Source of the DNA: Verrucomicrobiota bacterium
Lineage (GTDB): Bacteria > Verrucomicrobiota > Verrucomicrobiia > Limisphaerales > UBA11358
Assembly (NCBI GenBank): GCA_049517655.1
Contig: JBEKRQ010000001.1
Coordinates: forward strand, 749,379-813,378
Direction of reading: 5' to 3'
Length of the DNA: 64,000 nucleotides
A model generated the notes under the pieces. It was not told the DNA's origin. It did not search any database and worked only from the letters and a program-made list of their open reading frames with translations. A program made the position numbers and the translations under genes. Positions within the stretch are counted from its first letter, which is position 1; each line of letters starts with the position of its first letter. Shown here piece by piece: positions 17,445 through 58,488 of the stretch.

Positions 17445-18296
17445 TTACGTGCTCGCGCTGGTGTAACGGCGGATGGAGAAGCGCCAGAACCATTCGGAAA
17501 TGAGCGCCCAAATAACACCCAAGCCGAACAGCGCCGACAAAGCGGCGGGCGATGTCAATTTGTCCGCCAGCACGCGCACGGGCACGTTGGACACCAGCAA
17601 CACCGGCAAGGCGAAGGTGAACACGGCCTTGAACACGCCGCGAAACGCTTCATCCGGCATCCGCGCGATGTTGAACAGATTGTAGTAGCCCCACACGATG
17701 CCTTGCGCGCGCACGGTCCAAAAACTCACCGAGGCAAGCATGAACATGAGCGAGTAATGCACCAAAAGCCCGACAACGCACAAAGCGGCAAAGACGAGCA
17801 ACTGCGCGGTGGTTGGGTGCAAATGTAATTTCCCTGCCGCAAAAACCATGACGCACACGGCGAACGCGGCGTTGGCAAATGACGGCAGGTCCACCTGTCG
17901 CATTGAAACGAGGAAACGCGTGTTGACCGGCAGCAGCAGCAGGAAATCCATTTTGCCCGTGCGGACGAGTTCGGAGAGGTTCGTGCAGTTCACGAGAAAG
18001 AACGCCTGGTAAATTTCCTGGATAAAATTGCTCGTGCCGGTGAGTAGCACCACCTGCCACACCGTCCACGTGCCGACGGTGCTGGTTTGACTGAAAAGAA
18101 CGCCGACAAAGGCGAGTTGCAGTCCGAACCACAGCAATTCGACGACAATCCAAAGAATAAAGTTGCCCTTGAACGACATTTCGCGCGTCACGGAAGTTTT
18201 CCACAACGCAGCGTAAATGGTGAGATAACGAGCGACGCCGGATACGAGTTGCGTGACGCCCGTTTCTGCCTTCTGTCTTCTGCCTTCTGCCTTCAT
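17445..18296 (-). CDS. ABC-2 type transporter permease (PF06182-like), second of pair
   Basis: Multi-TM protein typical of ABC-2 family permeases. Start moved to MKAEGRR, immediately after the stop of the upstream permease. The first codons are encoded by the heptamer array 18264-18294. Confidence 0.6.
   Translation of the reverse strand: MKAEGRRQKAETGVTQLVSGVARYLTIYAALWKTSVTREMSFKGNFILWIVVELLWFGLQLAFVGVLFSQTSTVGTWTVWQVVLLTGTSNFIQEIYQAFFLVNCTNLSELVRTGKMDFLLLLPVNTRFLVSMRQVDLPSFANAAFAVCVMVFAAGKLHLHPTTAQLLVFAALCVVGLLVHYSLMFMLASVSFWTVRAQGIVWGYYNLFNIARMPDEAFRGVFKAVFTFALPVLLVSNVPVRVLADKLTSPAALSALFGLGVIWALISEWFWRFSIRRYTSAST
18264..18294. repeat. heptamer array TTCTGCC x4
   Basis: ttctgcc ttctgtc ttctgcc ttctgcc at the junction of the two ABC-2 permease genes. 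Encodes MKAEGRRQKAE. Confidence 0.85.
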
Positions 18297-18300
18297 TTCA

Positions 18301-19110
18301 TCATCCTCCAAACGCGGCGTATTTCTTAATGCCGCGCCGCCACGCAAATCGCGCAAGCGCATAACCAATCAACACCCAACCCGCTTGCACAAACATTCCA
18401 CGCAGCAAATCCGCACCCGCAATTTCGCCAGTGTAAATGCCGATGGGGAAATAAAGCATATACGGAAACGGCGTGAAGAAGAGCGCGTGTTCCAGCGCGG
18501 GACTTATAGTATGCAATAGGGGGAGTGGAAATAGATGGCCGCTGGCGATGTATTCGAACGCGAACAAAATGAAAATGAACGTGGAAATTTCCAGCACCCA
18601 AAACGCGAGCATCGCCATCGCGTAGGAAATGAAAAATTGCAACAGCGCCGTCAGCACCAGCGAAATCAGGAAGGCCGCCAGCGCCAAGCCGTCCGGCGGG
18701 AAAATAAAATAACCGCGCAAACAAAAAACGAAAATCGCCAGCGGCACGACGGCCACGGTCATATACGCGACGCGCCCGGAAAAAAACAGGCACAGCCGAT
18801 ACCATAAATAATCAATCGGCTTGAGCAGGAACTGGCTGATGTTGCCTTCGCGAATGTCGGCGGCGATCTGCCAGTCGTCCTCGTTTACCGCCGTGAGCAC
18901 GTCCACAACGGCGACAAGCAGATAATAGGAAATCATTCCCGACAGGGTGTAACCGGAAATTGTCGCGCCCTTCGCCGCGTAAATGGTGCGCCAGAGCGAC
19001 AGCATGGCGAACAGCGGGATGAAGCTGAACAGCGTTCGCGTCAGGTAATTGAAGCGATACGTCAGGTTGTTTTGAATCCCGATGCCGATGACATGCCAGT
19101 ATTTTTTCAT
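18301..19110 (-). CDS. ABC-2 type transporter permease (PF06182-like), first of pair
   Basis: Multi-TM protein with N-terminus MKKYWHVIGIGIQNNLTYRFNYLTR. Start moved inside ORF 18301..19170. There is no cognate ATPase gene upstream. Confidence 0.6.
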   Translation of the reverse strand: MKKYWHVIGIGIQNNLTYRFNYLTRTLFSFIPLFAMLSLWRTIYAAKGATISGYTLSGMISYYLLVAVVDVLTAVNEDDWQIAADIREGNISQFLLKPIDYLWYRLCLFFSGRVAYMTVAVVPLAIFVFCLRGYFIFPPDGLALAAFLISLVLTALLQFFISYAMAMLAFWVLEISTFIFILFAFEYIASGHLFPLPLLHTISPALEHALFFTPFPYMLYFPIGIYTGEIAGADLLRGMFVQAGWVLIGYALARFAWRRGIKKYAAFGG

Positions 19111-19112
19111 TC
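18980..19112. repeat. 133-bp direct repeat, copy 1 (5' end of the ABC-2 permease gene)
   Basis: Three mismatches versus 21663-21795 by manual alignment. Weaker similarity continues for ~30 bp beyond. Confidence 0.9.
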
Positions 19113-19262
19113 CTATGCAGACACGCTGGAAATTTAGTTGCGATAGACCGGAACGCGAAGGGAAAATCAAAGCGATGAAATTTGAAAATCATTACTTTTC
19201 TACTTGTCATTGCAGCGTTCCGTTGCTAAACTTTTAGCTTAGCTTTCAACCGAGGTGACCTG

Positions 19263-21665
19263 ATGAAAAGATGTTTTTCACTCGTTTTGGCGGGGTGCGC
19301 AATGTTTATGTTTTCTCCTTCTTCGGCACGCGCCGTTCCCGGCGACGAGCATTGGGACCCGCAATTCAACTGGCCGGGCACGACGAATATCATCATGGGC
19401 ATTGGAATCGGCGGCGGAAAAATTTATGCGGGCGGCGAGATCAGCGCCGGCACGCTGACCAATGCGCCGCTGGAAGTGTGGGACGGTTTGCAGTGGTCCA
19501 CGATAGGTGCTTTTACCGGCAGCCCCGCAGTCATCGAAGATATTGCCGTTGCAGGCGGCACGCTGTATGTCGGCGGAGTTTTCACGACTGTCAATGGCGC
19601 AGCGATCAACGGGCTTGCCAAATGGGACGGGACAAGCTGGAGCGGAATTGGCTTTTCCGGCATCGTTTACGGGTTGGCCGTGAACGGCAATAATCTTTAT
19701 GTGGCCGGCTCATTCACCAATACCGACGCTGGCGGCGTGATGATGACCAACATCGGTTATTGGGATGGGAGCGCCTGGCACGCTTTGGGTGGTGGCCTCG
19801 GAACACCGGGCACCGGCTCGGCAAGGGTGGTCGCCGTCAACAACGGTCTGGTTTACGCAGGCGGTTCTTTCACCAATTCCGGCTCGCAACTCATCACGAA
19901 CCTCGCGGTGTGGAATGGTTCCGGTTGGTCGGCGGTCGGCGGTGGAGCCAATTCAGTTGTTTATGCCCTGACATTCAACGGAACTGATCTTTACGTCGGC
20001 GGCTCCTTCACGCAGGCTGGCCCCACGCTGGCGACGAACATTGCCAAGTGGGATGGCGTGAACTGGTCGGCGGTCGGCGGCGGTTTGACCGGCACGGGCA
20101 GCAGCGTGAACAGCCTCGCTGTTTTCAATGGCTCGGTTTGCGCGACGGGCGTGTTCACCAACGCCGGCGGGTTGATGGTGGCCAACTTCGCGGTTTGGAA
20201 CGGCTCGTCATGGTCGGTGGCCAACGGCGGCATCAGCGCGACCGGCTACCGCGTCGTCAACAACGGCACAAACGTTTATGTCGGCGGCAATTTTATTTCA
20301 GCAGGCAACAAATTGATGAACGGCATCACGGCCTGGGATGGCGTGAATTGGAACCCCATTGGAACCGCCGGCCGAATCAACGGCATTTATGCCACCGTCC
20401 GGGCTTTGGCCGGCGATGGGACAAATTTATACACAGGCGGAAGCTCGTTTTATTGGGCGGGACAAACCAACGTGAACCTGATCGGCCGCTTCGACGGCAC
20501 GAATTGGTATCCGCTCGGCACCGGCATCAGCGGGTCAAGCGTCATCAGCGGCCCCATCGGCACCGGTATTCTCACCATCGCCCTCACCAATAATTACGTT
20601 TATGCCGGCGGCTATTTCACAAACGCCGGCGGTGTGCCAGTAACCAACATCGCTTCCTGGAACGGGTCAAACTGGTCTGCGATGGGCAGCGGCCCCGGCG
20701 GCGTGGTGGCTTCCATTCTCGTCCGCCCGGACGGCGTTTATGCGGTGGGCGCGCCGTTTTACAATGTCAGCTATTACAACAGCCCGTTTTTCTCCCGTTG
20801 GGACGGTTCGAGCTGGCAGGGTGTTACCATCAACTTTCCGCCTTATACCGATTGGGAAACTTCTATTAGTCCCAACCTTGGCATGGCCGCGTTGGCCTGT
20901 ATCGGCACCAACATTTTCATCGGCGGCTATTTCTACCTTGGTGAATATACCAATCCACCTTCCGGCTATGTCGGCTGCAACAATATCATGCGCTTCGACG
21001 GCACATACGGGTGGGTCATGGGCATGGGACTCAGCAGCAACGTCACCGCCATGGCCGTCATCGACACCAATCTTTTTGTCGCAGGACAGTTCACGAATGC
21101 CAGCGGCGTGGCGGCCAGCAAGATTGCCCTGTGGAATGGCAATTACTGGACGAATCTTGGCAGCGGGCTGGTTGGCAGCGGCGTTATCAACGGGCTGGCG
21201 ACCATGGGCGGGAATCTTTACGTCGGCGGCACGTTCACCAACATGGGCGGCACACCGGTTAATCGCATCGCCAAATGGGACGGTACAAATTGGTCCGCGC
21301 TCGGCAACGGCGCCACTTATCCCGGCTTGAGCAGCGCCTCCATCTTCGGTCTCGGTGTTTTGGGCAACAGCCTTTATGCCAGCGGAAGTTTCCGAATGAT
21401 GGGTGACAAGCCGTCGTTCTACATCGCGCGTTGGAACGAGCAGAAGAATTTCGACACGCCGCAAATCAGCCCCCTCTTCGTGACCAACGGTCTGTTTCGC
21501 ATGCGGCTTTTCGGAGTCAGCGGCATGACCAACCTCATTCAGGCTACTACCAATTTTACCACTTGGACGCCGATACTGACCAACAGTGCCGGTATCTACG
21601 ACTTCAGCGACCCGAACTCTTCAAGTTATCCCTTCAGATTTTACCGCGCGGTTCTTGGCCCATAA
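19263..21665 (+). CDS. secreted beta-propeller-type repeat protein
   Basis: Signal peptide, then about 14-16 units of ~50 aa with the pattern W(D/N)G..W..(L/V)G.G....V.AL...G..LYVGG.FT..GG....NIA.W. C-terminal domain ends ...YPFRFYRAVLGP. Confidence 0.7.
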   Translation: MKRCFSLVLAGCAMFMFSPSSARAVPGDEHWDPQFNWPGTTNIIMGIGIGGGKIYAGGEISAGTLTNAPLEVWDGLQWSTIGAFTGSPAVIEDIAVAGGTLYVGGVFTTVNGAAINGLAKWDGTSWSGIGFSGIVYGLAVNGNNLYVAGSFTNTDAGGVMMTNIGYWDGSAWHALGGGLGTPGTGSARVVAVNNGLVYAGGSFTNSGSQLITNLAVWNGSGWSAVGGGANSVVYALTFNGTDLYVGGSFTQAGPTLATNIAKWDGVNWSAVGGGLTGTGSSVNSLAVFNGSVCATGVFTNAGGLMVANFAVWNGSSWSVANGGISATGYRVVNNGTNVYVGGNFISAGNKLMNGITAWDGVNWNPIGTAGRINGIYATVRALAGDGTNLYTGGSSFYWAGQTNVNLIGRFDGTNWYPLGTGISGSSVISGPIGTGILTIALTNNYVYAGGYFTNAGGVPVTNIASWNGSNWSAMGSGPGGVVASILVRPDGVYAVGAPFYNVSYYNSPFFSRWDGSSWQGVTINFPPYTDWETSISPNLGMAALACIGTNIFIGGYFYLGEYTNPPSGYVGCNNIMRFDGTYGWVMGMGLSSNVTAMAVIDTNLFVAGQFTNASGVAASKIALWNGNYWTNLGSGLVGSGVINGLATMGGNLYVGGTFTNMGGTPVNRIAKWDGTNWSALGNGATYPGLSSASIFGLGVLGNSLYASGSFRMMGDKPSFYIARWNEQKNFDTPQISPLFVTNGLFRMRLFGVSGMTNLIQATTNFTTWTPILTNSAGIYDFSDPNSSSYPFRFYRAVLGP

Positions 21666-21793
21666 ATCGTGCGCCAGAGCGACAGCATGGCGAACAGCGG
21701 GATGAAACCGAACAGCGTTCGCGTCAGGTAATTGAAGCGATACGTCAGGTTGTTTTGAATCCCGATGCCGATGACATGCCAGTATTTTTTCAT
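21641..21793 (-). pseudogene. 5' fragment of the ABC-2 permease gene (duplicate of 18980-19112)
   Basis: Encodes MKKYWHVIGIGIQNNLTYRFNYLTRTLFGFIPLFAMLSLWRTIY, then runs antisense into the end of the propeller gene and stops after 50 codons. Confidence 0.7.
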
Positions 21794-21795
21794 TC
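21663..21795. repeat. 133-bp direct repeat, copy 2
   Basis: Begins exactly at the stop codon of the beta-propeller gene and includes a duplicated permease start codon. Confidence 0.9.
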
Positions 21796-21936
21796 ATTCA
21801 CAAACGTTTGGAAATTTATCTGCGCAAAATGGAATTGCGATTCAATTTTTATTGCCGAACAACGCGTCCGCAATTAGTGTTAGCGCCGGTGATTGCCATT
21901 TGTGCCAGTCAACGCAACATTTAGGACCAAAGACGT

Positions 21937-24114: not shown

Positions 24115-24117
24115 GTT

Positions 24118-25475: not shown

Positions 25476-25510
25476 AAATTCAACAAGGTAGGAACGCGCG
25501 TCCCTCTGCC

Positions 25511-28682: not shown

Positions 28683-28690
28683 GGGAACCA

Positions 28691-28725
28691 GTCTAAAGTC
28701 CAAAGTCCAAAGTCCAAAGTCTAAA
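28691..28725. repeat. heptamer array GTCCAAA x5
   Basis: gtctaaa gtccaaa gtccaaa gtccaaa gtctaaa, with the complementary cagactttggac at 28749-28760. Lies in the recJ-ispD spacer and abuts the ispD start. Confidence 0.9.
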
Positions 28726-28769
28726 ATGTTCGTGACCGCTTTGAACTTCAGACTTTGGACCCTGGATTA

Positions 28770-30584
28770 TTACGCCGCCCGCCAATCCAAAACTTTCAAT
28801 TGCACCGTGCGGCGGCCGTTGAACTCGTTGATTTGCGGCGCGAACGCCAGGTCAAATTTTCCGATGGGCAATGACGCTTCACCACCATTCCACCAAACAG
28901 CTTCCAACACCGTGCCGCCCGCAGCGCCGTAGCCGCCTTGCGGCGAAGGCGTGTCCGTCACCCACATCTTGACGTGCCGCCTGTCCGCGCCGATGCGCTG
29001 GAGCGGTCGCGCGTGGGTGAGATTGCGCGCGCAGAATCGCACGCCGGGATTTCCCTGCCCCGTTGGTTTCAAACGCGCCAGCTCGTTCAGCGTTTCAAAA
29101 TTCATTTCGTCCAGGCCGACTTCCGCATCGAGGCGCAATGACGGTTGCAAATCCTCCGGTTTCAATTCGCGGCGCGCCAATTCGTTCAATCGCTCCCGCA
29201 GCGCGTCAATTTTGTCCGATTGAATGCTCAAGCCCGCGGCCATTGCGTGCCCACCGTGGCGCACCAGCAAATCGTCGCATTCGCGCAATGCGGCGGCCAG
29301 ATCGAAACCCGCGATGCTGCGTCCCGATCCACGCCATTCATCGCCCTCACCACCAATGATGATGGTGGGCCGGTAAAACTCCTGCAACACACGCGACGCG
29401 ACGATGCCGACAACGCCGATGTGCCAGAGTAATTGTCCTTCGACGATGACGAAGTCTTTCCCCGGGTCAAACTTCGCACGTAATGTGCCGACAACTTCCT
29501 CGACGATGTCACGCTCGATTTTTTGGCGTTCGCGATTCCGCGCATCGAGACTTTGTGCCAGCGGCATGGCTTCGGCCTGACTGCGGACGAGCAGCAGATG
29601 CAGCGATTCCTCGGCTGATTCGAGCCGACCGGCGGCGTTGAGGCGCGGCGCAAGTTGAAAACCGACTTCGTGTGTGCCCAACATGGCGGGCGATTGCGCG
29701 GCCTTTTTCAACGCGATGAGACCGGGCCGTTTCGTCGTGTTCAGCCGCTGCAAACCGGCGGAAACAAGAATGCGGTTTTCGCCGATGAGTAGCACGAGGT
29801 CGGCGATGGTGCCCAGTGCGACCAAATCGAGCAGCGGGCGCAAATCGAATTCCGCAGCGCCGGGCAGATTCATCTCGCGTCCGCGTTTGACCAGGGCGTG
29901 CGCGAGTTTGAAAGCGAGACCAACGGAGCAGAGTTCGGTAAAAACGGTTGAGGGTTGAGAGTTGCCCGCCTTCACTTCGTTTCGGCGCGGTCGCGCCGGA
30001 GCTTCCAGCGGAGGCGGAAGAGTTGAGAGTTGTGGATTGACCAGCGCGACTGCCTCCGGCGCGGGCGAAGAAATCTGATGATGATCGAGAACAACCACAT
30101 CCACACCGCGTTCACGCAGCCATGAAATGGTTTCTACGGCGGTCGAGCCGCAATCCACGGCCAGCAAGAGGGTTACAGGAAATTTTTTGAGGCAATTTTC
30201 GACGCCGTCCTGGCTCAGGCCGTAGCCTTCGTCCATGCGATTCGGCAGATAAAAATCCACCTTCCAGCCCAGCGTGCGCAAAACTTCAACAAGCAGCGCG
30301 GTGGAAGTGACACCGTCCGTGTCGTAATCGCCAAAAATCACGAGCGGTTCGTTTTGCTCCCGAGCATGGAGCAATCGCCCGACAGCGGCGTCCATGTTCG
30401 GCAGTAAAAACGGGTCGGCGAGATTTTTAAGGCGCGGCTGCAAAAAATCACGGATGGCAATCGGCTCACTGAAGCCGCGATTCAGCAGGCATTGGGCAAG
30501 CAGCGGCGGGATTTTGAGTTGCGCGGCCAGTTGACCGGCGAGCAGAGGTTGCGGTGGCGCGAGCGACCAGTGAAATTTCATCAT
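28770..30584 (-). CDS. recJ: single-stranded-DNA-specific exonuclease RecJ
   Basis: DHH motifs (FGDYDTDG, VVLDHHQ) and DHHA1 motif GGHAMAAG. Start moved to MMKFHW. Contains the repeat-derived insert 29947-30035. Confidence 0.9.
   Translation of the reverse strand: MMKFHWSLAPPQPLLAGQLAAQLKIPPLLAQCLLNRGFSEPIAIRDFLQPRLKNLADPFLLPNMDAAVGRLLHAREQNEPLVIFGDYDTDGVTSTALLVEVLRTLGWKVDFYLPNRMDEGYGLSQDGVENCLKKFPVTLLLAVDCGSTAVETISWLRERGVDVVVLDHHQISSPAPEAVALVNPQLSTLPPPLEAPARPRRNEVKAGNSQPSTVFTELCSVGLAFKLAHALVKRGREMNLPGAAEFDLRPLLDLVALGTIADLVLLIGENRILVSAGLQRLNTTKRPGLIALKKAAQSPAMLGTHEVGFQLAPRLNAAGRLESAEESLHLLLVRSQAEAMPLAQSLDARNRERQKIERDIVEEVVGTLRAKFDPGKDFVIVEGQLLWHIGVVGIVASRVLQEFYRPTIIIGGEGDEWRGSGRSIAGFDLAAALRECDDLLVRHGGHAMAAGLSIQSDKIDALRERLNELARRELKPEDLQPSLRLDAEVGLDEMNFETLNELARLKPTGQGNPGVRFCARNLTHARPLQRIGADRRHVKMWVTDTPSPQGGYGAAGGTVLEAVWWNGGEASLPIGKFDLAFAPQINEFNGRRTVQLKVLDWRAA
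29947..30035. repeat. GTTGAGA-heptamer-flanked insert inside recJ
   Basis: gttgagg gttgaga gttgccc (29947-29967) and gttgaga gttgtgg (30022-30035) bracket a GC-rich core with the palindrome ggcgcggtcgcgcc. Encodes ...LSTLPPPLEAPARPRRNEVKAGNSQPST.... Confidence 0.8.
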
Positions 30585-34596: not shown

Positions 34597-36423
34597 CTAT
34601 TTTAAAGTTTCAACTTTAGCTTCCGGCTCGACCCACTTGTTATGTTCCTTGATAAGGTCAACGAGTCGTTCCACAGCTTCGGCTTCGGGGATGTTGAACT
34701 TGATCGCCTGCTTGCCGACGTAAAGGTTGATCTTGCCGGGCGCGCCGCCAACGTATCCGAAGTCGGCATCTGCCATTTCACCCGGGCCGTTCACGATGCA
34801 GCCCATGATGGCGATTTTAACACCCTTGAGATGCTCCGTCCGAGCCTTGATGCGAGCCATCACGGTCTGCAAGTTGAACAGCGTCCGCCCGCACGACGGG
34901 CACACCACGTAATCGGTCTTGAACGAACGGCAGCCCGCTGCCTGCAAAATATTGTAAGCCAGCCGCAGCGATTGTCCGCTGTCGGACTCCCCGCGAATCA
35001 AAATCGCATCGCCAATGCCGTCCGCCAGCAGCGAACCGATTACAACGGACGCGCGCAGCAAGACGATTTTGGGTTCCAGTGGCACAGACCTCTGGTCTGT
35101 GTTCGCCCTTTCATTCACAGGCTGGAAGCCTGTGCCACATAAACAATCCTTGAGTAGAATCGGATTGTTGCGACCAAGTCTCTTCAATTTCGCCACGAGC
35201 AGACGGAATGCAGTAATCGCGGGTAAATTCACACCATCTTTTACAGTCACGAGTTGCGTGTCACTGTTAATGTTGAAATCCTTTGTTGGGTCGAGTTCCG
35301 CAACATTCAAGTCTTCATAGACTGCCTCCGGTTTCACGTCGTCCCTCAGGCGAATCTTCGGAGTAACCTTGTCCCACGTGGCGCGAGTGACGACGACGCG
35401 GATGAGCTGTTCGCCGCCGCACTTGAAATTTTCGCTTGGAGAAATTCCCGGCGTTTTGCGACGCTCGAAGTGGAAGGGGTCGAACGGAAATTCCGAATTC
35501 GGAATTCGGAATTCGGAATTCGACAGTTTGGGAATTTGCGCCAGCAAATCGCGGCAGACCTCGACTTCGCGCGGCGAATCTTCCGTGAGTGAAACTCGGA
35601 TCGTGTCGCCCAACCCGTCGCACAGCAACGAGCCGATGCCGATGGCGGATTTGATGCGGCCGTCCTCGCCCCCGCCCGCCTCGGTCACACCCAGGTGGAT
35701 CGGATAATTCCAGTCCGGCCCTTCCTGTTCCAGCCGCGCGACGAGCAGCCGATAACATTCGATCATCACCTTGGGATTGCTCGCTTTCATCGAGAATTTG
35801 AAGTTGTGGAAATCGTGCATGCGGCAGATGCGGGCGAATTCCAACGCGCTCTCGACCATGCCAAGCGGCGTATCACCGTAACGGTTCATGATGCGGTCGG
35901 AAAGCGAGCCGTGGTTCGTGCCGATGCGCAACGCGCGCTTCAGGCGTTTGCACTCGATGACCAGAGGCGTGAATTTTTCCTCAATGCGCTTTAATTCGGC
36001 GGCGTATTGCCCATCGGTGTATTCCTTGCCGGCAAATTTCTTGGAATCGGCGTAGTTGCCCGGATTGACACGCACGACTTCGACCCATTTCACCGCTTCC
36101 ATCGCCGCCTCCGGTTTGAAATGGATGTCGGCGACGATAGGCACGTTGCAGCCGCGCTTGCGAAGCCCGGCGACAATGTTTTTGAGATTCGCCGCGTCTT
36201 TGACTGTCGGCGCGGTGATGCGGACGATCTGGCAGCCGACGGCGACGAGGTCGAGCGTTTGTTTCACGCACCCGGCGGTGTCCATCGTGTCGCATGTAAT
36301 CATGGACTGTATGACGACCGGATGGTCGCCACCAATGACGATGCCGCCGCGCGCCGGATCGCCGATGACAATTTCGCGGCTCTTCCGCCGCTGATGAAAA
36401 AATGGTGATTCGCAGTAGCGCAT
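34597..36423 (-). CDS. ispG: 4-hydroxy-3-methylbut-2-en-1-yl diphosphate synthase (long-form IspG/GcpE)
   Basis: TIM-barrel N-terminus (VIQSMITCDT) and C-terminal Fe-S motifs CPSCGRT and GCIVNGPGE. Start moved to MRYCESPFF directly after the rseP stop. Two repeat inserts (35079-35138, 35486-35521). Confidence 0.9.
   Translation of the reverse strand: MRYCESPFFHQRRKSREIVIGDPARGGIVIGGDHPVVIQSMITCDTMDTAGCVKQTLDLVAVGCQIVRITAPTVKDAANLKNIVAGLRKRGCNVPIVADIHFKPEAAMEAVKWVEVVRVNPGNYADSKKFAGKEYTDGQYAAELKRIEEKFTPLVIECKRLKRALRIGTNHGSLSDRIMNRYGDTPLGMVESALEFARICRMHDFHNFKFSMKASNPKVMIECYRLLVARLEQEGPDWNYPIHLGVTEAGGGEDGRIKSAIGIGSLLCDGLGDTIRVSLTEDSPREVEVCRDLLAQIPKLSNSEFRIPNSEFPFDPFHFERRKTPGISPSENFKCGGEQLIRVVVTRATWDKVTPKIRLRDDVKPEAVYEDLNVAELDPTKDFNINSDTQLVTVKDGVNLPAITAFRLLVAKLKRLGRNNPILLKDCLCGTGFQPVNERANTDQRSVPLEPKIVLLRASVVIGSLLADGIGDAILIRGESDSGQSLRLAYNILQAAGCRSFKTDYVVCPSCGRTLFNLQTVMARIKARTEHLKGVKIAIMGCIVNGPGEMADADFGYVGGAPGKINLYVGKQAIKFNIPEAEAVERLVDLIKEHNKWVEPEAKVETLK
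35079..35138. repeat. family-C double-hairpin element, 60 bp, in frame inside ispG
   Basis: The reverse complement aligns along its whole length with 12915-12969. Encodes GTGFQPVNERANTDQRSVPL. Confidence 0.9.
35486..35521. repeat. heptamer array GGAATTC x4-5 inside ispG
   Basis: ggaaattc cgaattc ggaattc ggaattc ggaattc, each unit carrying GAATTC. Encodes SNSEFRIPNSEFPF. Confidence 0.9.
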
Positions 36424-36427
36424 GAAA

Positions 36428-37813
36428 TTATCTGGCCGGCACCGGTACAGTTTCTGCGGGTGGCTGGGTTGTTTGTTCGATTTGCACGTTGTTATTGAAC
36501 ATCGCTCGGAACAGTGGAATCCGTTTGATGTCAAAGAACGAGACATAGAGCATGAACGAAATCACGAGCACCGCGAAGCAGGTCGTGGTGTATTCGACGA
36601 ACCTGATGTCCAAAGGCCGGCGGCGGATTTTTTCGATGATTGCCATCAAAATGTGGCCGCCGTCGAGCACGGGAACCGGCAGCAAATTGATAATTGCAAG
36701 GTTGATGTTGAGCAACACAAGAAAACTCAAGGCGAGGCGATAGTCCGCGTTCACATACACGGCAAGAATCGAAAGGATGCCCAATGGGCCGCTCAAATCG
36801 CTCGCTTTCACGCCTGTCTGCCGCGTATGAATGAGGGCCGAGATAACTCCGAAGGTTTGTTTTGTGACTTCCTGAATCTGGACCCACGGCAAAGGACCGG
36901 GCTTTTTCACCTCGTAGACACCTTCACTGAAAACGACGCCGATGCGGGCACGCTCGTTGACCGGGTCGTATTGCGGCGTTACGGTCGTGCTCCTTTTTTC
37001 ATTCTGACGGTTGAACACGATTATACACGGTTTGCCTTCGGATTTGGAAATGACCTCGATCATCCGGTCTCTGCTGGGGACCGGGATTCCATTTACCGAC
37101 AGGATTTTATCGCCACTCATCAAACCAGCCGCCGCTGCGGGCATGCCACTTTCGACGGCACCGACGACTGGATGCTCACGTGGATCGAGATCCAGCCACT
37201 TGCCACCCGCGGGGTTCGCCTTGGCCGTCAGATAGTAGGTTTTCTGTTCACCACTCCGTTTGATGACTACGGGAAAGACATTGGTCTTGGCCGTCATCGT
37301 CTCGAATACAACATCCTGCCAGGATTCCACCGCATGCCCGTTGACTATCACGATACGGTCGCCTTCCGTGATCCCAAGTTTTCCTTCCGGCGAATTCGGA
37401 TTGACTTCGCCAATCACCGACGGGTTTACCAATATGGGCAATCCGACAAAATAAATCACCGTGGCAATGGCGAAGGCGAACACGACGTTCATGAACGGTC
37501 CGGCAAAAGCAACAAGTATTTTGCGCAACGGAGGCGCAGGCGGGACCTTTTCGGTGGACTGACCTTCCAGCGCTTCGGAGGTAATCATTTGCGGCAGCTT
37601 CACAAAACCGCCGGCGGGAATCCAACGCAGCGAATATTCGACGCCGTTGCGCTTCCGACTGCAAATTTTTGGGCCAAACCCGACGGCAAATTCGTCCACT
37701 TTCATTCCCAGCCGGCGCGCGACCCAAAAATGGCCAAACTCATGGACAAAAATGGCCGCGCCAAACAACGCCAACACGGCGGCAATCACGTAAATGATGT
37801 TTAAAATGGTCAT
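36428..37813 (-). CDS. rseP: RIP zinc metalloprotease RseP (M50 with PDZ)
   Basis: Motifs HEFGHF and NLLPVPVLDGGH with PDZ segments between them. Start moved to MTILNIIYV. Confidence 0.9.
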   Translation of the reverse strand: MTILNIIYVIAAVLALFGAAIFVHEFGHFWVARRLGMKVDEFAVGFGPKICSRKRNGVEYSLRWIPAGGFVKLPQMITSEALEGQSTEKVPPAPPLRKILVAFAGPFMNVVFAFAIATVIYFVGLPILVNPSVIGEVNPNSPEGKLGITEGDRIVIVNGHAVESWQDVVFETMTAKTNVFPVVIKRSGEQKTYYLTAKANPAGGKWLDLDPREHPVVGAVESGMPAAAAGLMSGDKILSVNGIPVPSRDRMIEVISKSEGKPCIIVFNRQNEKRSTTVTPQYDPVNERARIGVVFSEGVYEVKKPGPLPWVQIQEVTKQTFGVISALIHTRQTGVKASDLSGPLGILSILAVYVNADYRLALSFLVLLNINLAIINLLPVPVLDGGHILMAIIEKIRRRPLDIRFVEYTTTCFAVLVISFMLYVSFFDIKRIPLFRAMFNNNVQIEQTTQPPAETVPVPAR

Positions 37814-43540: not shown

Positions 43541-43767
43541 ACGCTGCGGCGATGCGAAAACACCTTTTCGCTGGTGTTCCGGGAGAATTCTCCTGTCACG
43601 CCGTGTTGAATGCCATCAACACAAAAAAGGGAAAGGATTTGCCAAAGTCAGCGAAGCCGAACCGGTCTGGAACTGGCAATTTTTAAGTGTGAAATGAGTT
43701 GGTTGCCACCGACAAGTTTGAGATTATGATTTATGATTTGTAACCCATCTTAAGACCCCGGCATTCC

Positions 43768-50225: not shown

Positions 50226-50280
50226 GGTAGGGCGCGATGTCCCCATCGCGCCGCGGCGGGCTGAGACAGCCCCCCCTACC
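50226..50280. repeat. family-A element in the PFOR / DHOD-like spacer
   Basis: ggtagggcgcgatgtccccatcgcgccg...cccccctacc. The first 27 nt match the copy at 59047 with one mismatch. Confidence 0.85.
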
Positions 50281-53382: not shown

Positions 53383-53388
53383 CTTGAA

Positions 53389-54453
53389 TCAACAAATCCG
53401 CGGCAGTTGCTCGCCGCTTGGCATGTCGAGGATCCGGTTCACGCCAATCGTGCTTTTTAACGTGACCAGCGGCGAAGCGCTCTCAATGACTTTGCCGATG
53501 GCCGCCACGCCCGCACCTGTCGCGTAGCCGTGCATGATTTGCAATGCGCGCTCCGCGTCCTTTTCCGCGACAAACACGATGAATCGTCCTTCGCACGCAA
53601 CGTGCAACGGGTCGAGTCCCAGCATCTCGCAGGCGGCATGAACGTCTTCGCGCACCGGCACGGCTTTTTCCTCAACGTCAATTTGCAGGTGCGCCGCTTC
53701 GGCAATTTCGTTGAGCGCGCTGGCCAGGCCGCCGCGCGTGAGGTCGCGCAGACAATGAATTTCAATCCCGACTTTAAGCAACTGCAAAACAATTTCGTGA
53801 ACGGGCGCGGAATCACTTTCAATGGCGCTTTCAAATTGCAATCCCTCGCGCATGGCCATGATTGCCATGCCGTGGCGGCCCAAATCGCCATTGACCAAAA
53901 TCACATCGCCGGGTTGCACATTTTGCGGCGCGATTTTTTGGTCATGCTCGATGACGCCGATGCCAGCGGTGTTGATGAACAAACCATCGCCCTTGCCTTT
54001 ATCCACCACTTTCGTATCGCCGGTGATGATCTGCACGCCGCAGCGTTGCGCCGCGTCGCGCATCGAGCAAACAATTTTCCAAAGCGTTTCCATTGGCAGC
54101 CCTTCTTCCAAAATGAACGCCGCACTTAAATAAAGCGGACGCGCGCCGGCCATGGCCAGATCATTGACTGTGCCATGCACGGCCATTGAACCGATGTCTC
54201 CGCCGGGGAAAAATAATGGCCGAACGACATAGGAATCTGTCGTGAATGCGATTCGTTTTCCGGTTAATTCAACGACTGCCGCGTCGTGTTGCGTCTCCAG
54301 AATGGGATTGTGAAACGCAGTCAGAAACATTTTGCCGATGAGCTGGTGCATCAGCCTGCCGCCACCGCCATGCGCGAGCAGGACATGCGGGTATTGCTGA
54401 ATTGGAATGGGGCAAACCGGCGTGAAATCTTTGGCGGAATTTTTCCTGCTCAT
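53389..54453 (-). CDS. hypE: hydrogenase maturation protein HypE
   Basis: PurM-like fold pattern and the C-terminal PRIC signature. Start moved to MSRKNSAKD, overlapping the hypD stop. Confidence 0.9.
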
Positions 54454-55562
54454 ATTGTTTTGCCGGTTTCTGCGGGCACATGCCGGCGATAACGGTAATA
54501 CGCGGCGCACGTCCCTTCGGATGAAACCATCGTCGCACCAAGCGGATGCTCCGGCGTGCAACGTGTGCCGAACATCGGACATTCGTGCGGTTTGATTTTT
54601 CCCTGCAAAACGAGGCCGCTGAGACATTCGGCGGGTTCGTCAACATGACGGTCGGCCAGGCCGAATTTCTTCTCGGCGTCAAACGCGGCATAGGTGTCGT
54701 TCAAACCGAGGCCGCTTTGCGGAATTTCCCCGACACCGCGCCATTTGCGGGGCACGACCTTGAAAACCTTGTGAATCAACTCCTGCGCCGGCTGGTTGCC
54801 TTCGCGGCGCACGGAACGAACGTATTGGTTTTCGACCTCGGCGCGGCCGGATTCGAGTTGCTGCACGACCATCAGCACGCCCTGCAAAATATCGAGCGGC
54901 TCGAAGCCGGTGACGACAATCGGCACGCGATATTTCGCCGCAATGGGGAAATATTCTTCATAACCCATGACGGTGCAAACGTGACCGGCGGCGAGAAAAC
55001 CCTGCACGCGGCAGTTCGGCGACGACAGCAACGCCTTCATCGCGGGCGGCACGAGCACGTGCGAAATGAGCATGGAAAAATTATTCAATCTCTTGTGCGC
55101 GGCCTGGTAAATGGCCATTGCTGTTGCGGGCGCCGTCGTCTCAAACCCGACACCGAAGAAAACGACTTCTTTCTTCGGATTTTCCTGCGCGAGTTTCATC
55201 GCGTCGAGCGGCGAGTAAACAATGCGCACATCGCCGCCTCTGGCTTTGACGCTGAGCAAATCCGTCGTGCTGCCGGGTACGCGCAACATGTCGCCGAATG
55301 AGGTGAAAATGACGTCTGGCCGGGCGGCGATTTCGAGCGCCTTGTCGATGATTTCCAGCGGCGTGACGCAGACCGGACAACCCGGTCCGTGGATGAGCGT
55401 GATTTGTTTGGGCAACAGTTCATCAATGCCGAACTTCACGATGGCGTGCGTCTGGCCGCCGCAAACTTCCATGATGTTCCAGGAACGGGTTGTGATGCGG
55501 TGAATCTCCCGCGCGAATTGCCGCGCGGGTTCCGCGTCACGATATTCATCAAGATATTTCAT
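54450..55562 (-). CDS. hypD: hydrogenase maturation protein HypD
   Basis: Motifs [10 protein letters not shown] and [10 protein letters not shown]; 370 aa. Confidence 0.95.
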
Positions 55563-55571
55563 GGTTTATTT

Positions 55572-55646
55572 GGTGGGGCGAGGCTACTGACGAGCCGTCT
55601 CCGCTTCGCCGCGCTAAGGTCGGCTCGCGAGGACGCTCGCCCCACC
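55572..55646. repeat. family-A variant in the hypC-hypD spacer
   Basis: ggtggggcgag...ctcgccccacc terminal inverted repeats. Confidence 0.85.
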
Positions 55647-55657
55647 GGTTCAAATTG

Positions 55658-55936
55658 TCAGCCGCTTTGTGTAGGAGGAACGCCTGCACCAGTTGTTCCC
55701 AGTTCGCCGAGTTCCTCCATCTCTTTCAAATAATCGAAGACCTTGTGCGCTTCGTCTTCGTCAAGCCGGCTGAGGGCAAAGCCGACGTGGACGATGACGT
55801 AGTCGCCCACTTTCACCTCCGGCACATAGGCCAGACTGACTTCCTTGAGGATGCCGCCAAAGTTGACCTTGCCAATCCGCAACAACGAATCGTTGCCGCT
55901 GATGCTTTCAATTTTTCCTGGGATTGCGAGACACAT
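55658..55936 (-). CDS. hypC: hydrogenase maturation chaperone HypC
   Basis: N-terminal MCLAIPGKI (essential Cys2). 92 aa with a C-terminal extension. Confidence 0.9.
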   Translation of the reverse strand: MCLAIPGKIESISGNDSLLRIGKVNFGGILKEVSLAYVPEVKVGDYVIVHVGFALSRLDEDEAHKVFDYLKEMEELGELGTTGAGVPPTQSG

Positions 55937-55947
55937 TGTCCCCTACT

Positions 55948-58488
55948 TTACTCCTTCCTCCGCAAGGCAGCAACGACTTGTCCCAGTGCAATCCCGCCGT
56001 CGTTCGGCGGCACGCGCTGATGCCAATAGGGTCGAAAACCCTCCGCCAGCAAACGCCGCACCGCGCGCTCCGTCAAATAACGATTCTGAAAACAACCACC
56101 GGAAAGCACAACCCGGTTTTGGCCGACGCGTTTTGCAATGGCGATAATGGCCTCGACCAATGCGTTGTGAAATTTTGCGGAAATTTTGCCGACCGAAACA
56201 CCACGCTTAACATCCGCCAAAATGGCTTCAATCATCGGCGACCAATCCAAAATAATTGCGGATTGCGGACCCCGGCTTTGCCGGAGGCTTCGCCGAGGCG
56301 AGTTGTGGATTGCGAATTGGCTGCTAATCCGCAATTCATAAGCTTCCTCGGTTTCAACGCCCTCCAGCGCGAATTCCAGTTCCATCGCCGCCTGACCTTC
56401 AAATCGGATGTGCTGACGAAGATTGGTGAGTGAAGCGACGGCGTCGAAAAGCCGGCCCACACTGGAACAAAGCGGCGAATTCAATTTTTTGGCCAGCATT
56501 GTTTTCAGCGTGGTCATTTCTGCTGCCGAAAAAGCGGTGATTGTTGCCAGTTTTTCCTGTTTAAAAACTTTGTCGCCGGAAATTTCGTAAAGCAGTCCGA
56601 GCGCGGTTCGGCGCGGTTCCTTCACGGCCTTGTCGCCGCCCGGCAGATGGAACGGACGCAAATGCGCGACGCGTTCGATGTTGTTATCGGTGACGATAAA
56701 AAATTCGCCGCCCCAAATCGTGCCGTCCAAACCGTAACCTGTTCCGTCCCACGACACGCCGAGCATGGGCGGCGCGATTTCATTTTCGGCCATGCAGGAC
56801 AGGACGTGGGCGATGTGATGCTGGACGCCGACGTGGCACACTGTGGTGGGGTGCGATGCTCGCCTGGGCGAAGCCTCGCGAAGACCGGTCCCTATCGCGT
56901 CGTCGGCGGGCTGCGGAGAGCCCGCCCTACCTGTCATTTCATTGGCATACTTTGTCGAGAGATAATCCGGATGCAAATCGGCGGCAATGATTTGCGGCTC
57001 GGCCTCGTAAAGCTTTTCGAAATCCGCGATGACATGGCGGAAGGCGGCGTGCGCCTGTTCGGTTTCCAAATCACCGATGTGCTGGCTGATGAAAACCTGA
57101 TTACCGACAGAAAGCGCCACGGTGTTTTTTAAATGAGCGCCAACGGCCAATACAATTGCGGATTGCGGATTGCGGATTGCGGATTTCAGAGTTTTGGTGG
57201 GGCGAGCGTCCCCGCGAGCCGCATTCCGCATTCTGCATTCCACATTCTGCATTTGAATGGGCAGCGGTGCATAACCGCGGGCGCGGCGCAAAACCAATTC
57301 GCGGTCGAGCATCACGCGCACAACCGAATCGTCCACATGCCGGACAATGGGGCGGTTGTGGACCAAAAATAAATCCGCGATGCCGCCGAGACGCTCCAAG
57401 GCTTCATGTTCATCCGTGCAAATCGGCTCATCACTCAGGTTGCCGCTTGTGGCGATGACAGGAAAACCGAGTTCGGTCATCAACAGATGATGCAACGGCG
57501 TGTAAGGCAGCATCACGCCGAGATTAGGATTGCCGGGAGCCACCGAATTTACGATTTGCGATTTGCGATTTGCGATTTTCTTGAGCAGGACGATGGGTGC
57601 TTCGGATGAGTGCAACAGTCGCTTTTCCAAAGGCGAGACTTTGCATTCCACCTTGATGACCTTCAATGAAGGAAACATCAGCGCGAACGGTCTTTCTTCG
57701 CGATGTTTCCGCTCGCGTAAAAGTCGAACTGCTTTGTCGTTGCGGGTATCCGTCATCAGGTGAAACCCGCCGAGTCCCTTGACTGCGACGATTTGTCCCT
57801 GTCGGATGGCTTCGGCAGCAGCGAGCAAAGCGTCGGCATTCTGGAGTGCGCGGACATGTCCGCGCTTTGAAAGCGGCGACACGTCGCCGCATTCCCACAA
57901 TTCCAAATGCGGGCCGCAGACCGGACACGCATTTGGCTGCGCGTGAAAACGGCGGTCGCGCGGGTCATCGTATTCAGCCTGACATTGCGGACACATCGTG
58001 AACTTGCGCATCGAAGTGTTCGCGCGGTCGTAAGGCAGGGATTCAATGATGCTGAAGCGCGGGCCGCAATGGGTGCAATTGGTGAATGGATAACGGTAAC
58101 GACGATTGGCAGGATCAAAAACTTCGTGTAGACAATCCGGACAAGCGGCAATGTCCGGCAAAATCAGCGCGGTTTTGCCGCCGCCGGTTTGACTTTCGCG
58201 GATTTCAAATTTCTTGTAACCGGCGGCGTCAAGCCACGAGCTTTCGAGGCTTTGGATGAAACTGCGCGGCGGTTTCTCGGTGTCGAGACGGAGAAAAAAT
58301 TGTTCGAGCGCGGCGCGCGGACCTTCAACTTCGATGAAAACGCCTTGCGAAGAATTATTGACCCATCCGGAAAGGTGGAGTTCGGCGGCGAGGCGGAAGA
58401 CGAACGGGCGAAAGCCGACGCCCTGCACCGCGCCGCGAACGGAAAGTTTCAGGCGCGTGCATCGGCTGGTTTGGCTGGCTTTGTTCAC
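55948..58488 (-). CDS. hypF: carbamoyltransferase HypF
   Basis: Acylphosphatase domain (VRGAVQGVGFRPFV), two zinc-finger pairs (CPDC..CTHCGPR, CPQC..CPVCGP), and YrdC and Kae1-like domains. 846 aa, including about 100 aa of repeat-derived inserts. Confidence 0.95.
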   Translation of the reverse strand: MNKASQTSRCTRLKLSVRGAVQGVGFRPFVFRLAAELHLSGWVNNSSQGVFIEVEGPRAALEQFFLRLDTEKPPRSFIQSLESSWLDAAGYKKFEIRESQTGGGKTALILPDIAACPDCLHEVFDPANRRYRYPFTNCTHCGPRFSIIESLPYDRANTSMRKFTMCPQCQAEYDDPRDRRFHAQPNACPVCGPHLELWECGDVSPLSKRGHVRALQNADALLAAAEAIRQGQIVAVKGLGGFHLMTDTRNDKAVRLLRERKHREERPFALMFPSLKVIKVECKVSPLEKRLLHSSEAPIVLLKKIANRKSQIVNSVAPGNPNLGVMLPYTPLHHLLMTELGFPVIATSGNLSDEPICTDEHEALERLGGIADLFLVHNRPIVRHVDDSVVRVMLDRELVLRRARGYAPLPIQMQNVECRMRNAARGDARPTKTLKSAIRNPQSAIVLAVGAHLKNTVALSVGNQVFISQHIGDLETEQAHAAFRHVIADFEKLYEAEPQIIAADLHPDYLSTKYANEMTGRAGSPQPADDAIGTGLREASPRRASHPTTVCHVGVQHHIAHVLSCMAENEIAPPMLGVSWDGTGYGLDGTIWGGEFFIVTDNNIERVAHLRPFHLPGGDKAVKEPRRTALGLLYEISGDKVFKQEKLATITAFSAAEMTTLKTMLAKKLNSPLCSSVGRLFDAVASLTNLRQHIRFEGQAAMELEFALEGVETEEAYELRISSQFAIHNSPRRSLRQSRGPQSAIILDWSPMIEAILADVKRGVSVGKISAKFHNALVEAIIAIAKRVGQNRVVLSGGCFQNRYLTERAVRRLLAEGFRPYWHQRVPPNDGGIALGQVVAALRRKE
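56254..56336. repeat. ATTGCGG-type inverted-repeat element inside hypF
   Basis: aattgcggatt (56254-56264) pairs with aatccgcaatt (56326-56336). The core shares ctcgcctNggcgaagcctc with 56858-56878. Encodes ...SSQFAIHNSPRRSLRQSRGPQSAII.... Confidence 0.85.
56845..56931. repeat. family-A element, 87 bp, in frame inside hypF
   Basis: ggtggggtg...cccgccctacc. The reverse complement starts with the same 28 nt as the glnS copy. Encodes [29 protein letters not shown]. Confidence 0.9.
57154..57187. repeat. heptamer array ATTGCGG x4 inside hypF
   Basis: attgcgg units at 57155, 57162, 57169 and 57176. Confidence 0.9.
57196..57220. repeat. family-A half element inside hypF
   Basis: ggtggggcgagcgtccccgcgagcc, matching the left ends of 13434 and 55572. 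Confidence 0.75.
57221..57255. repeat. heptamer array GCATTCY x5 inside hypF
   Basis: gcattcc gcattct gcattcc acattct gcatttg. Confidence 0.85.
57553..57580. repeat. heptamer array GATTTGC x4 inside hypF
   Basis: gatttgc x3 plus gattttc. Encodes KIANRKSQIV. Confidence 0.9.

Follow-up and report, generated by a model that had tools for sequence, protein, structure and literature searches.

Heptanucleotide tandem arrays in protein genes and gene spacers of a Verrucomicrobiota bacterium and their probable association with S23p cassettes

Heptamer arrays of the window

The elements described here are short tandem arrays of 7-nt units (heptamers) that lie inside, or directly before, protein genes in a stretch of 64,000 nucleotides from a Verrucomicrobiota bacterium (contig JBEKRQ010000001.1, positions 749,379 to 813,378), hereafter called the window. 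The genes concerned encode aconitase (AcnA), two ABC-2 permeases, IspD, RecJ, IspG (GcpE) and HypF. These Pfam assignments agree with the gene names of a first-pass annotation that had been made from the sequence alone, and the host genes so named are all on the minus strand (Table 1). The G+C content of the window is ~55%. The closest relatives of its IspG (80-86% identity) come only from metagenome-assembled genomes labelled Verrucomicrobiota, Verrucomicrobia subdivision 3 or Limisphaerales, many of them from peat, and ~99% of the sampled words of the window DNA were found in some twenty peat and wetland metagenomes. By its IspG relatives the host belongs to Verrucomicrobiota subdivision 3, and the cyanobacterial short tandemly repeated repetitive (STRR) sequences, which the first-pass annotation had brought up, do not account for the arrays. 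An IspD-based scan of metagenomes for near-identical strains gave best matches of 90 and 86% identity, and an exact search of the GTDB representative genomes with the ATTGCGG array and its flanks gave no match. The Rfam scan of the window revealed one tRNA only and no rRNA; all array copies are in or between protein genes and none is in a 23S rRNA gene.

Tandem Repeats Finder, run on the whole window, reported eight period-7 arrays of 2.7-5.1 units where the first-pass annotation had noticed them, and in addition five two-unit arrays. In a match-run test there were five exact period-7 arrays of at least 18 nt and none at period 6 or at periods 8-12. With our own scorer, applied at periods 4-13, six arrays reached a score of at least 11 at period 7, the only other one at any period being a period-10 array, and 20 dinucleotide-preserving shuffles gave 0.0; at a score of at least 9, ten period-7 arrays were found compared to 0.22 in block shuffles. 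The arrays are thus confirmed as real and well above the expectation from shuffled sequence, which is where the first-pass annotation had seen the critical comparison.

Table 1. Heptamer arrays, related inserts and their host genes in the window (TRF, Tandem Repeats Finder).
Feature	Position	Strand	Unit and copies	Context or product	Basis
Aconitase A gene acnA	94-3000	-			Pfam
acnA array	2382-2411	-	AGAGTTG, 4.3, imperfect (sense CTCAACC/CAACTCT, ~4.3)	aa 197-207	TRF
Two ABC-2 permease genes	17445-18368 and 18301-19170	-			Pfam
ABC-2 start array	18264-18294	-	TTCTGCC, 4.4 (sense (GAAGGCA)4.4)	directly after ATG 18296-18294 of second permease	TRF
ispD spacer array	28690-28725		AGTCCAA, 5.1		TRF
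recJ-ispD spacer hairpin	28699-28766	-		arms are heptamer array and degenerate inverted copy	
recJ array	29946-29964		GGTTGAG, 2.7		TRF
RecJ loop insert	29943-30032	-		in frame, aa 196-225	
ispG gene	34597-36546	-			Pfam
ispG array	35489-35522	-	AATTCGG, 4.9 (sense (CGAATTC)4.9)	encodes SNSEFRIPNSEF, aa 342-353	TRF
GATTTAT array	43724-43739	+	(GATTTAT)2.3	28 nt upstream of ATG (43768) of ADP-forming acetyl-CoA synthetase/GNAT gene	
hypF gene	55948-58488	-			Pfam
Decayed composite in hypF	56247-56340	-	includes 2.1-unit ATTGCGG array, 56255-56269	aa ~716-746, ...AIHNSPRRSLRQSRGPQSAI...	
hypF composite insert	57155-57253	-		in frame, aa 412-445, peptide NVECRMRNAARGDARPTKTLKSAIRNPQSAI	
First array of composite	57155-57185		ATTGCGG, 4.4, 100% matches		TRF
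Second array of composite	57219-57253		CCGCATT, 5.0		TRF
Third hypF array	57547-57578	-	ATTTGCG, 4.6 (sense (AAATCGC)4.6)	KIANRKSQIVN, aa 304-314, Sua5/YrdC domain loop	TRF
Two-copy arrays	19927, 20065, 41480, 43724 and 56255		two copies each		TRF

Arrays inside genes

The first-pass annotation had placed the arrays inside open reading frames (ORFs) or at gene starts, and each host ORF is indeed open through its array; every in-gene array is flanked by Pfam domains on both sides. Programmed frameshifting was ruled out, as all host ORFs continue straight through the arrays, and an assembly artefact was ruled out by independent assemblies carrying identical sequence. In alignments with solved structures the array sites are insertions in loops or linkers. 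As a 7-nt unit is read in three frames, the encoded peptides have a period of seven residues.

The site of the acnA array corresponds to a 5-residue insertion when aligned with human IRP1, and no RNA hairpin is predicted for it (z -0.04). Two other insertions relative to IRP1, of ~46 and ~17 residues, are found in the same protein (aa 412-476 and about 800-822). In recJ, a 54-nt palindromic insert at 29964-30017 (CCGCCTCC...GAAGGCGGGC) interrupts an array of ~33 nt consisting of CAACTCT and CAACCCT units, of which 30018-30032 remains on the left and 29943-29963 on the right. The recJ array of the first-pass annotation is therefore present, but it is only the right half of the split array. The splitting suggests that heptamer arrays are themselves targets for other small elements. 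The RecJ array loop has ~22 extra residues in the alignment with a solved homologue; among relatives the orthologous loop is 23 aa in three and 30 aa in 15, a difference of 7 aa or 21 nt, i.e., three units, and the extra residues are coded by CAACTCT-type or other heptamer arrays.

The ispG array encodes a peptide in the linker that follows the TIM-barrel domain. It is partly self-complementary, GAATTCCGAATTCGGAATTC being a perfect palindrome, and its RNA fold has a z score of -2.25. Just outside the window, prolyl-tRNA synthetase (ProS) carries an in-frame (AAGTCAG)5.3 array encoding QKSEVRSQKSEV. In several relatives, the place of the IspG and RecJ arrays is taken by hairpins resembling repetitive extragenic palindromic (REP) sequences.

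The composite insert of hypF reads, in the sense direction, (GAATGCG)~5 at 57219-57253, then a GC-rich REP-like element at 57193-57221 and finally (AATCCGC)4.4 at 57155-57185, the two arrays being near reverse complements of one another. Located between the YrdC-like and Kae1-like domains, it adds ~25 residues compared to the solved HypF structure 3VTH, and its fold is significant for RNA (z -2.9) but not for DNA (z -0.46). The encoded peptide includes ECxMRNAAR(G/E)DARPTKT.KS(A/E)IRNP.S. The composite of ~100 nt is at residues ~405-450 in the window and some relatives, and at ~712-752 in other relatives; since one and the same unit occurs at two different HypF sites, it appears to have moved. 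The third hypF array corresponds to a segment that is three residues longer than in 3VTH; relatives have other heptamer-coded peptides at this site, and the loop is short in outgroups. Two further HypF inserts coincide with other dispersed repeats, and outgroup HypF proteins have short loops at all five insert sites.

Several other observations concern hypF and its surroundings. It is the most invaded gene of the window, with at least five repeat-derived inserts, and belongs to a hydrogenase neighbourhood (53389-63065) with a HypE-like (AIRS) protein, HypD, a NiFe hydrogenase large subunit and a NuoG-like molybdopterin/Fe-S protein. The GC-rich REP-like element 'GGTGGGGCGAGCGTCCCCGCGAGCCG' occurs at 13434-13486, 55569-55646 and 57193-57221; the two intergenic copies are inverted pairs free of heptamer arrays and the third is a single copy between the hypF arrays, translated as ARGDARPTKT. 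A second REP-like family, 'GGTAGGGCG(C/G)G...CCGCC', is found at 8300-8335, 50226-50261, 59047-59129 and 56888-56931, the last copy being inside hypF, where it coincides with ~30 extra residues (aa 521-552) relative to the solved HypF. One more dispersed element, at 57842-57895, consists of two small palindromes, gcgcggacatgtccgcgc and gcggcgacacgtcgccgc, has a 5-10 times raised contig depth and forms a 14-residue in-frame HypF insert (aa 203-216), a loop at which relatives have unrelated inserts. HypF of Candidatus Manganitrophaceae (Nitrospirota) shares heptamer-coded SAIRNPQSEI and QSEIRNPKSAI segments at two loops with Verrucomicrobiota, which suggests an independent gain in another phylum.

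Arrays at gene starts

Two arrays are located at the beginning of genes, one filling the first codons of the second ABC-2 permease and one in the spacer before ispD, as described in the first-pass annotation. In the ABC-2 case the N-terminus MKAEGRRQKAE is encoded by the array, which occupies codons 2-11; GGAGGA precedes the ATG by 8 nt, and the stop codon of the upstream permease is at 18303-18301. The same region includes a 133-nt direct repeat (98% identical copies at 18980-19112 and 21663-21795) flanking an 800-residue ORF (19263-21665) that has a weak beta-propeller match and nothing stronger; one of the two repeat copies extends over the 5' part of the first ABC-2 permease gene.

Before ispD, the array is one arm of a hairpin. 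The right arm, (GACTTTG)3-GACTTTA-GACT at 28690-28725, ends 8 nt before the ATG (28682), and the left arm, at ~28741-28766, is a degenerate inverted copy of it. The predicted RNA fold of this leader reaches -36.8 kcal/mol (z -4.9), a value equalled by none of 200 shuffles. Among 80 relatives an array upstream of ispD, often accompanied by an inverted arm, is kept in many whatever the upstream gene is, and the very sequence of the leader, i.e., four units plus AGACT, is retained in many lineages at IspD identities of 67-90%. The element matches no Rfam family, and the promoter and terminator scan found no consensus in it. A promoter read by hand (TTGGAC-N16-TAGACT) was dropped, as the promoter scan gave no support.

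Constant length

The first-pass annotation had regarded the arrays as potential contingency loci, in which gain or loss of units by slippage would switch genes, above all at the ABC-2 start and in the ispD leader. A 7-nt period is not divisible by 3, these two arrays are placed as in phase-variable genes (within the first 11 codons and 8 nt before the start codon, the others being mid-gene), and heptamer numbers vary among strains of Coxiella, in the intervening sequence (IVS) of the 23S rRNA gene, and of Cyanothece. Stability was assessed from assembled contigs of peat and wetland metagenomes of 2017-2025, four independent ones per stretch, a material in which rare within-population length variants could be missed. 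Contigs crossing the ABC-2, recJ, ispG and hypF arrays displayed no indels, despite 24 SNP positions recorded in one 10.7-kb stretch of the same comparison. Three independent assemblies were 99.97-100% identical over 13-23 kb with 0 gaps, and the exact 968-residue, array-bearing AcnA is indexed in 88 blocks of the assembly collection. Across species, too, the unit count is constant at the ABC-2 start (4.4-4.6 units in the window and two relatives), in the ispD leader and in the IspG linker. Moreover, slippage rates should be low with 4-5 units only. AcnA, RecJ, IspG, IspD, HypF and ProS are housekeeping proteins, most of the hosts being essential single-copy enzymes (IspG, IspD, ProS, AcnA), and the ABC-2 permease alone is arguably environment-facing. 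Phase variation is thus very improbable as the role of these arrays, and the length polymorphism in related strains that it was expected to leave was seen neither in the contigs nor in the three assemblies. The heptamer arrays are stable passengers, not phase-variation switches.

Turnover of the unit sequence

The linker of IspG is exactly 39 nt in 54 of 81 orthologues, and significant 7-nt periodicity is kept in 85% of these 39-nt linkers. Depending on the species, it is filled by near-perfect arrays of CGAATTC, CGAACTC, CAAATTC, CGCATTC, CGAGTTC, CGGACTT, CGAATCA, CGCCAAT, CAACCTT or other units; some linkers are decayed arrays of equal length, and some have hairpin inserts of 72-117 nt at that place. 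Identity is 0.86 between units of one array, 0.67 between orthologous units across species and 0.75 in the flanking coding DNA. Units are more alike within an array than between species, and the arrays are therefore evolving in concert. At the ABC-2 start, two relatives (92 and 89% protein identity) have (AGTCCAA)4.5 of equal length and at an equal place, which looks like replacement of one array by another rather than point mutation followed by homogenization. The unit sequence turns over by concerted evolution or by wholesale replacement, while the length remains at ~28-32 nt and the frame is kept. In the IspG linker of three relatives the heptamer array is replaced by period-8 arrays (e.g., AATTCAAC).

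That all the in-ORF arrays are in loops or linkers could also mean that they have been selected as flexible or disordered linkers, in the manner of the tandem repeats of Borg elements, which according to the title of that report create new intrinsically disordered regions in proteins (PMC9879509). The period is 7 nt, however, and not 21 or another multiple of 3, which makes the peptide an accident of three-frame reading. Peptides at one and the same site differ freely between species, as exemplified by NSEF, NHES, NRQS, NLQP and TSDF in the IspG linker, and arrays of this kind are more frequent outside than inside genes. Adaptation at the protein level is a very improbable explanation.

The repeat class in related genomes

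The sequences surrounding ispG in 80 related genomes (1.2 Mb) contained 71 period-7 arrays and no more than 13 at any other period; the corresponding numbers for 0.7 Mb around ispD from 80 metagenome contigs were 73 and no more than 15. Metagenome contigs have a word depth raised 5-30 times over the hypF arrays and end at the array borders, where their continuations are heterogeneous, from which it follows that the same arrays are present at many other loci. A dispersed repeat class with a fixed period of 7 nt, as the first-pass annotation had described it, is accordingly seen in the window, in both samples of relatives and in the metagenomes. In 1.96 Mb, 83% of which is called ORFs, 150 arrays were distributed as 62 well inside ORFs, 15 near ORF 5' ends, 22 across ORF edges and 51 intergenic.

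With a mean GC of 0.43, the units are richer in AT than the genome (GC 0.57), and 67% of the 150 arrays have GATT, GACT or GAAT on one strand, where 16% would be expected. The first-pass annotation had proposed a shared core of the form NTTGNGR; a partly common core does exist, but it is better written as GA(T/C/A)T followed by three free bases. Period-7 copy numbers are bimodal (146 arrays at 2.0, 21 at 3.0, 43 at 4.0, 50 at 4.5 and 8 at 5.0) and stop abruptly at 5, whereas the histograms at other periods decay monotonically. The lack of G-runs in the units rules out a G-quadruplex as the cause of the four-unit preference. In the ispG sample, an inverted partner of two units was found within 600 nt for 14 of 77 arrays, a direct partner for one, and for none of the controls. 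Arrays predicted to form stems in the window are that of the ispD leader, with a strong fold, and those of the hypF composite and ispG, with moderate ones.

These numbers bear on the main rival explanation, plain replication slippage with a 7-nt preference set by the polymerase. An excess of heptanucleotide simple sequence repeats has been reported for many bacteria, slippage accounts for diverse unit sequences, arrays of mixed units (CAACTCT grading into CAACCCT) resemble slippage plus mutation, and the majority of arrays are solo. On the other hand, slippage should give geometric copy numbers rather than a peak at 4-4.5 with a sharp end, and does not predict a GAYT core in two thirds of the arrays. 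Nor does it fit the wholesale replacement of units at constant length or the presence of the hypF composite at two different sites. Taking also the arrays around S23p genes into account (see below), we consider slippage an unlikely explanation.

S23p cassettes

In a part of the relatives heptamer arrays flank genes of the S23p family (PF05635). Its members are four-helix bundles with the Avd fold, related to Avd, the accessory protein of diversity-generating retroelements, and we know of no function established for the S23p/IVS proteins. The entry of a solved family member, 2RLD, contains five chains.

The cdsA-dxr spacer is 390-536 nt in 16 relatives, and in those of them where a gene was detected in it, this gene encodes 119-127 residues with a match to Pfam 23S_rRNA_IVP (E 2.5e-16). 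All 12 S23p genes of the ispG-centred loci are flanked by heptamer arrays, on both arms or at least one. The main type of cassette has (ATTTACG)n upstream and (CGTAAAT)n downstream, the latter often running into the dxr ATG, and a second S23p paralogue has AATGACG and CGTCATT arms. The spacer forms a graded series from empty (the window and 11 relatives) through a solo array (few relatives) and a gene-less hairpin of inverted arrays (two relatives, with a different unit) to the full cassette. A single copy of the cassette unit is present in cdsA, ~30 nt upstream of the insertion point (ATTTACG at 38991-38994 in the window and ATTTGCG in one relative); this may be a coincidence, or a seed or target.

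The association was extended to 80 S23p genes, collected by a scan with an alignment of the cassette proteins, from Verrucomicrobia, Acidobacteria, Bacteroidetes, Planctomycetes, Chloroflexi, Lentisphaerae, Ignavibacteria, Desulfobacterales and others. A strong array was found within 260 nt of 69 of them and, with a looser cut-off, an array at 72, with both arms present at 42. These near flanks (41 kb) contain 76 period-7 and 23 period-8 arrays, and the sequences further out (142 kb) 17 and 8; acidobacterial cassettes have 8-nt units. GATT is present in 56 of the 76 units (logo G-A-T-T-[T/G]-N-N), and the units of 14 out of the 19 arm pairs agree at six or more of seven positions once one of them is reverse-complemented. 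An array density beside S23p genes ~15 times that further out, together with the inverted symmetry of the arms, is again not what slippage in AT-rich spacers that merely happen to house S23p cassettes would give. A few S23p-flank arrays (three loci) reach 9-10 units. Units shared by S23p flanks and the window or its immediate surroundings include GATTGCG, GAATGCG, GGAATTC, TTCTGCC/AAGTCAG and the AAATCGC type (rotation GATTTGC on the other strand), and the GATTTAT unit at 43724 is also of a type that flanks S23p genes. The heptamer class is lineage-wide and probably spans several phyla.

S23p genes are placed precisely between adjacent host genes, as at 6505-6971 of locus L002 and at ten other loci, and in L161-L240. 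In 23 of 59 cases the downstream arm supplies or abuts the ATG of the next gene. Arms reaching the next ATG, the array of the ispD leader, which at IspD identities as low as 67% is still conserved in sequence, number of units and spacing from the ATG regardless of the upstream gene, the strong hairpin there, and the TAACTGA repeats just before start codons in Beggiatoaceae would all agree with functional cis-elements at gene boundaries (e.g., RNase III stems, or sites for single-strand binders of the Csp or S1 type), with the coding copies as by-products. Units, however, differ between genes and lineages and thus offer no common recognition sequence, the ispD element has no promoter or terminator consensus and no Rfam family, and the arrays inside enzymes are left unexplained. 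As the whole explanation a cis-element role is distinctly unlikely; it is compatible with, not opposed to, the cassette-based explanation given below.

The window has other repeated genes as well. Two AhpC/TSA peroxiredoxin genes (5387-5868 and 6090-6571) are tandem paralogues with 82% DNA identity, and so are the thioredoxin-like/redoxin-domain genes at 14259-15158 and 15231-17438, which have a 300-nt stretch at 76% identity.

Origin of the arrays

On balance, we consider it somewhat more probable than not that the window arrays are gene-less members of the heptamer class associated with S23p cassettes, carried as passengers in coding DNA, with their length frozen and their sequence turning over. 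A typical member has ~4 to 4.5 tandem units (28-32 nt), usually GA(T/C/A)T plus three free bases, and the complete form appears to be two inverted arrays around a small S23p gene, a cassette placed exactly between two host genes. The window holds gene-less forms only: arrays standing alone, array-array hairpins, to which the ispD leader and the quasi-palindromic array of ispG belong, and, in hypF, one composite in which a REP-like element separates two arrays. Such orphans may have arisen from cassettes when a hairpin or cassette arms were inserted or copied and parts were lost afterwards. Copies in coding DNA would survive only if they are stop-free in all three sense frames, add a multiple of 3 nt and fall in tolerant loops or linkers; the result of these conditions would be short, 7-residue-periodic peptides such as those of AcnA, RecJ, IspG, HypF and ProS. 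The copy number would be frozen because slippage by a single unit destroys an essential gene and is purged, and units may be renewed by homogenization within the array or by exchange for another array of equal length. At the RNA level it is plausible, by analogy with the Coxiella IVS, that paired arms at gene boundaries form long stems serving as RNase III or mRNA-processing sites.

A number of observations weigh against this explanation. With tblastn, no S23p gene was found in the window or in the adjoining 10 kb on its left (loci L279-L281 included), and the link between the window arrays and the cassettes consequently rests on the type of unit, the size and the architecture; the ispD-centred loci likewise yielded no S23p genes. 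No transposase, target-site duplication or other mobility signature was detected. The arms were tested for G-U pairing specific to RNA and showed no signal (47 vs 44), and long flanks produce spurious duplexes (control -57 kcal/mol). The GTTGAGA/CAACTCT-type arrays of acnA and recJ, two of the eight in the window, do not have the GAYT core. Inverted partners accompany only the minority of relative arrays mentioned above, and by RNA folding the acnA, ABC-2, recJ and third hypF arrays are solo and have no hairpin partner. Array density is ~11 times higher in intergenic than in coding DNA (ispD-centred sample), so that 'coding-sequence colonizer' describes a tolerated minority and this window happens to be rich in coding copies. 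Finally, constancy of length was judged from contigs, with the limit on rare variants already given.

A bolder extension of the cassette-based explanation assigns an active role to the S23p protein. The arrays would be cis sites of an S23p pentamer; a Xanthomonas homologue is cited as a homopentamer (PMC4990558). One pentamer would read about five units, which would set the limit of 4-5, and whole blocks of ~30 nt would be written or overwritten by templating, which would account for units being exchanged while the length stays constant. This system would be the hidden cause of the bacterial heptamer excess, STRR, the GGGAATC repeats of Xanthomonas and the TAACTGA repeats of Beggiatoa among them, and in the present lineage it would be active enough to paste arrays in frame into essential enzymes. 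We regard this scheme as speculative and rather unlikely.

In many bacteria heptanucleotides are reported to be the long simple repeats with the strongest over-representation, and the sole explanation offered has been a conjecture on the footprint of the polymerase; PMC4679880 attributes to Mrazek (2007) the idea that the 7-nt length corresponds to polymerase contact. The present data suggest that the heptamer excess and the function of the S23p family are linked, which makes it testable whether S23p binds, sizes or moves arrays. The window also provides a clean case of non-triplet repeats that are stable in frame in essential enzymes, at the same loop across many species, with the sequence turning over, and may be useful in studies on the co-evolution of selfish DNA and protein loops. 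Annotators should be aware that such arrays are neither frameshift errors nor phase-variation switches.

Comparison with known repeat systems

The units of cyanobacterial STRR1-3 are CCCCAGT, TTGGTCA and CAACAGT, and none of the window units equals any of these. An excess of heptamers in bacteria has been described together with STRR and with the GGGNATC/GGGGAYT repeats of Xanthomonas and Nostoc, which prefer four units (Rehm, 2015; PMC4692102). The window arrays resemble them in being dispersed tandem heptamers with a preference for about four units, the known ones being mostly intergenic near ORF ends (PMC4692102). Judging from the sequence, Xanthomonas GGGAATC as the reverse complement of GATTCCC would fit the GATTNNN pattern. 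The window differs in phylum, in its AT-rich units and in the much larger share of arrays inside genes, and since its units have no G-runs, the G-quadruplex account of the four-unit preference of GGGNATC cannot apply.

TAACTGA direct repeats are known from marine Beggiatoaceae, Microcystis and some Bacteroidetes (MacGregor, 2015; PMC4679880). Like the ispD array, they end just before start codons, in arrays of 2-6 units, and a minority is found inside ORFs, in the stop-free orientation only, read as a 7-residue repeat (PMC4679880). Heptamers in coding sequence are therefore not new, although the first-pass annotation knew of no such description. That system has one dominant unit, and its copies within ORFs mostly belong to hypothetical proteins or to the ends of proteins (PMC4679880), whereas the class described here has many units, resides in conserved enzymes at orthologous sites across species and evolves in concert.

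The IVS of the Coxiella burnetii 23S rRNA gene contains an S23p ORF and a 28-bp terminal stem that is cut by RNase III (Warrier, 2016; PMC4990558), and 2-3 tandem GACAGAT heptamers, the number of which varies among strains (PMC4990558). S23p genes have also been found inserted within cas operons (PMC3936711). The cassettes of the relatives are similar to the IVSs of Coxiella and Leptospira in having a small PF05635 ORF, complementary stem-forming termini and tandem heptamers, which in the IVS are on the 5' side. Unlike IVSs, the elements described here are between or inside protein genes, the window copies have no ORF and the units are of the GATTNNN type. Our literature search retrieved no paper linking the PF05635 family in general to heptamer arms and none on such arrays in Verrucomicrobia.

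With the contingency loci of Haemophilus and Neisseria the arrays share a unit length that is not a multiple of 3 and, in part, a position at the gene 5' end or in the leader; they differ in lacking length polymorphism, in having tracts of few units and in residing in housekeeping genes.

Rickettsia palindromic elements (RPEs) are reportedly inserted in frame in protein genes. The heptamer arrays are likewise dispersed repeats in conserved proteins, with the frame intact and at sites absent from homologues, and both would be short selfish repeats that persist in frame at tolerant sites of conserved functional proteins. RPEs, however, are palindromic and ~100-150 nt in length, with one conserved sequence per family, and are not tandem heptamers; of the elements described here, only the hypF composite and the REP-like inserts resemble them closely.

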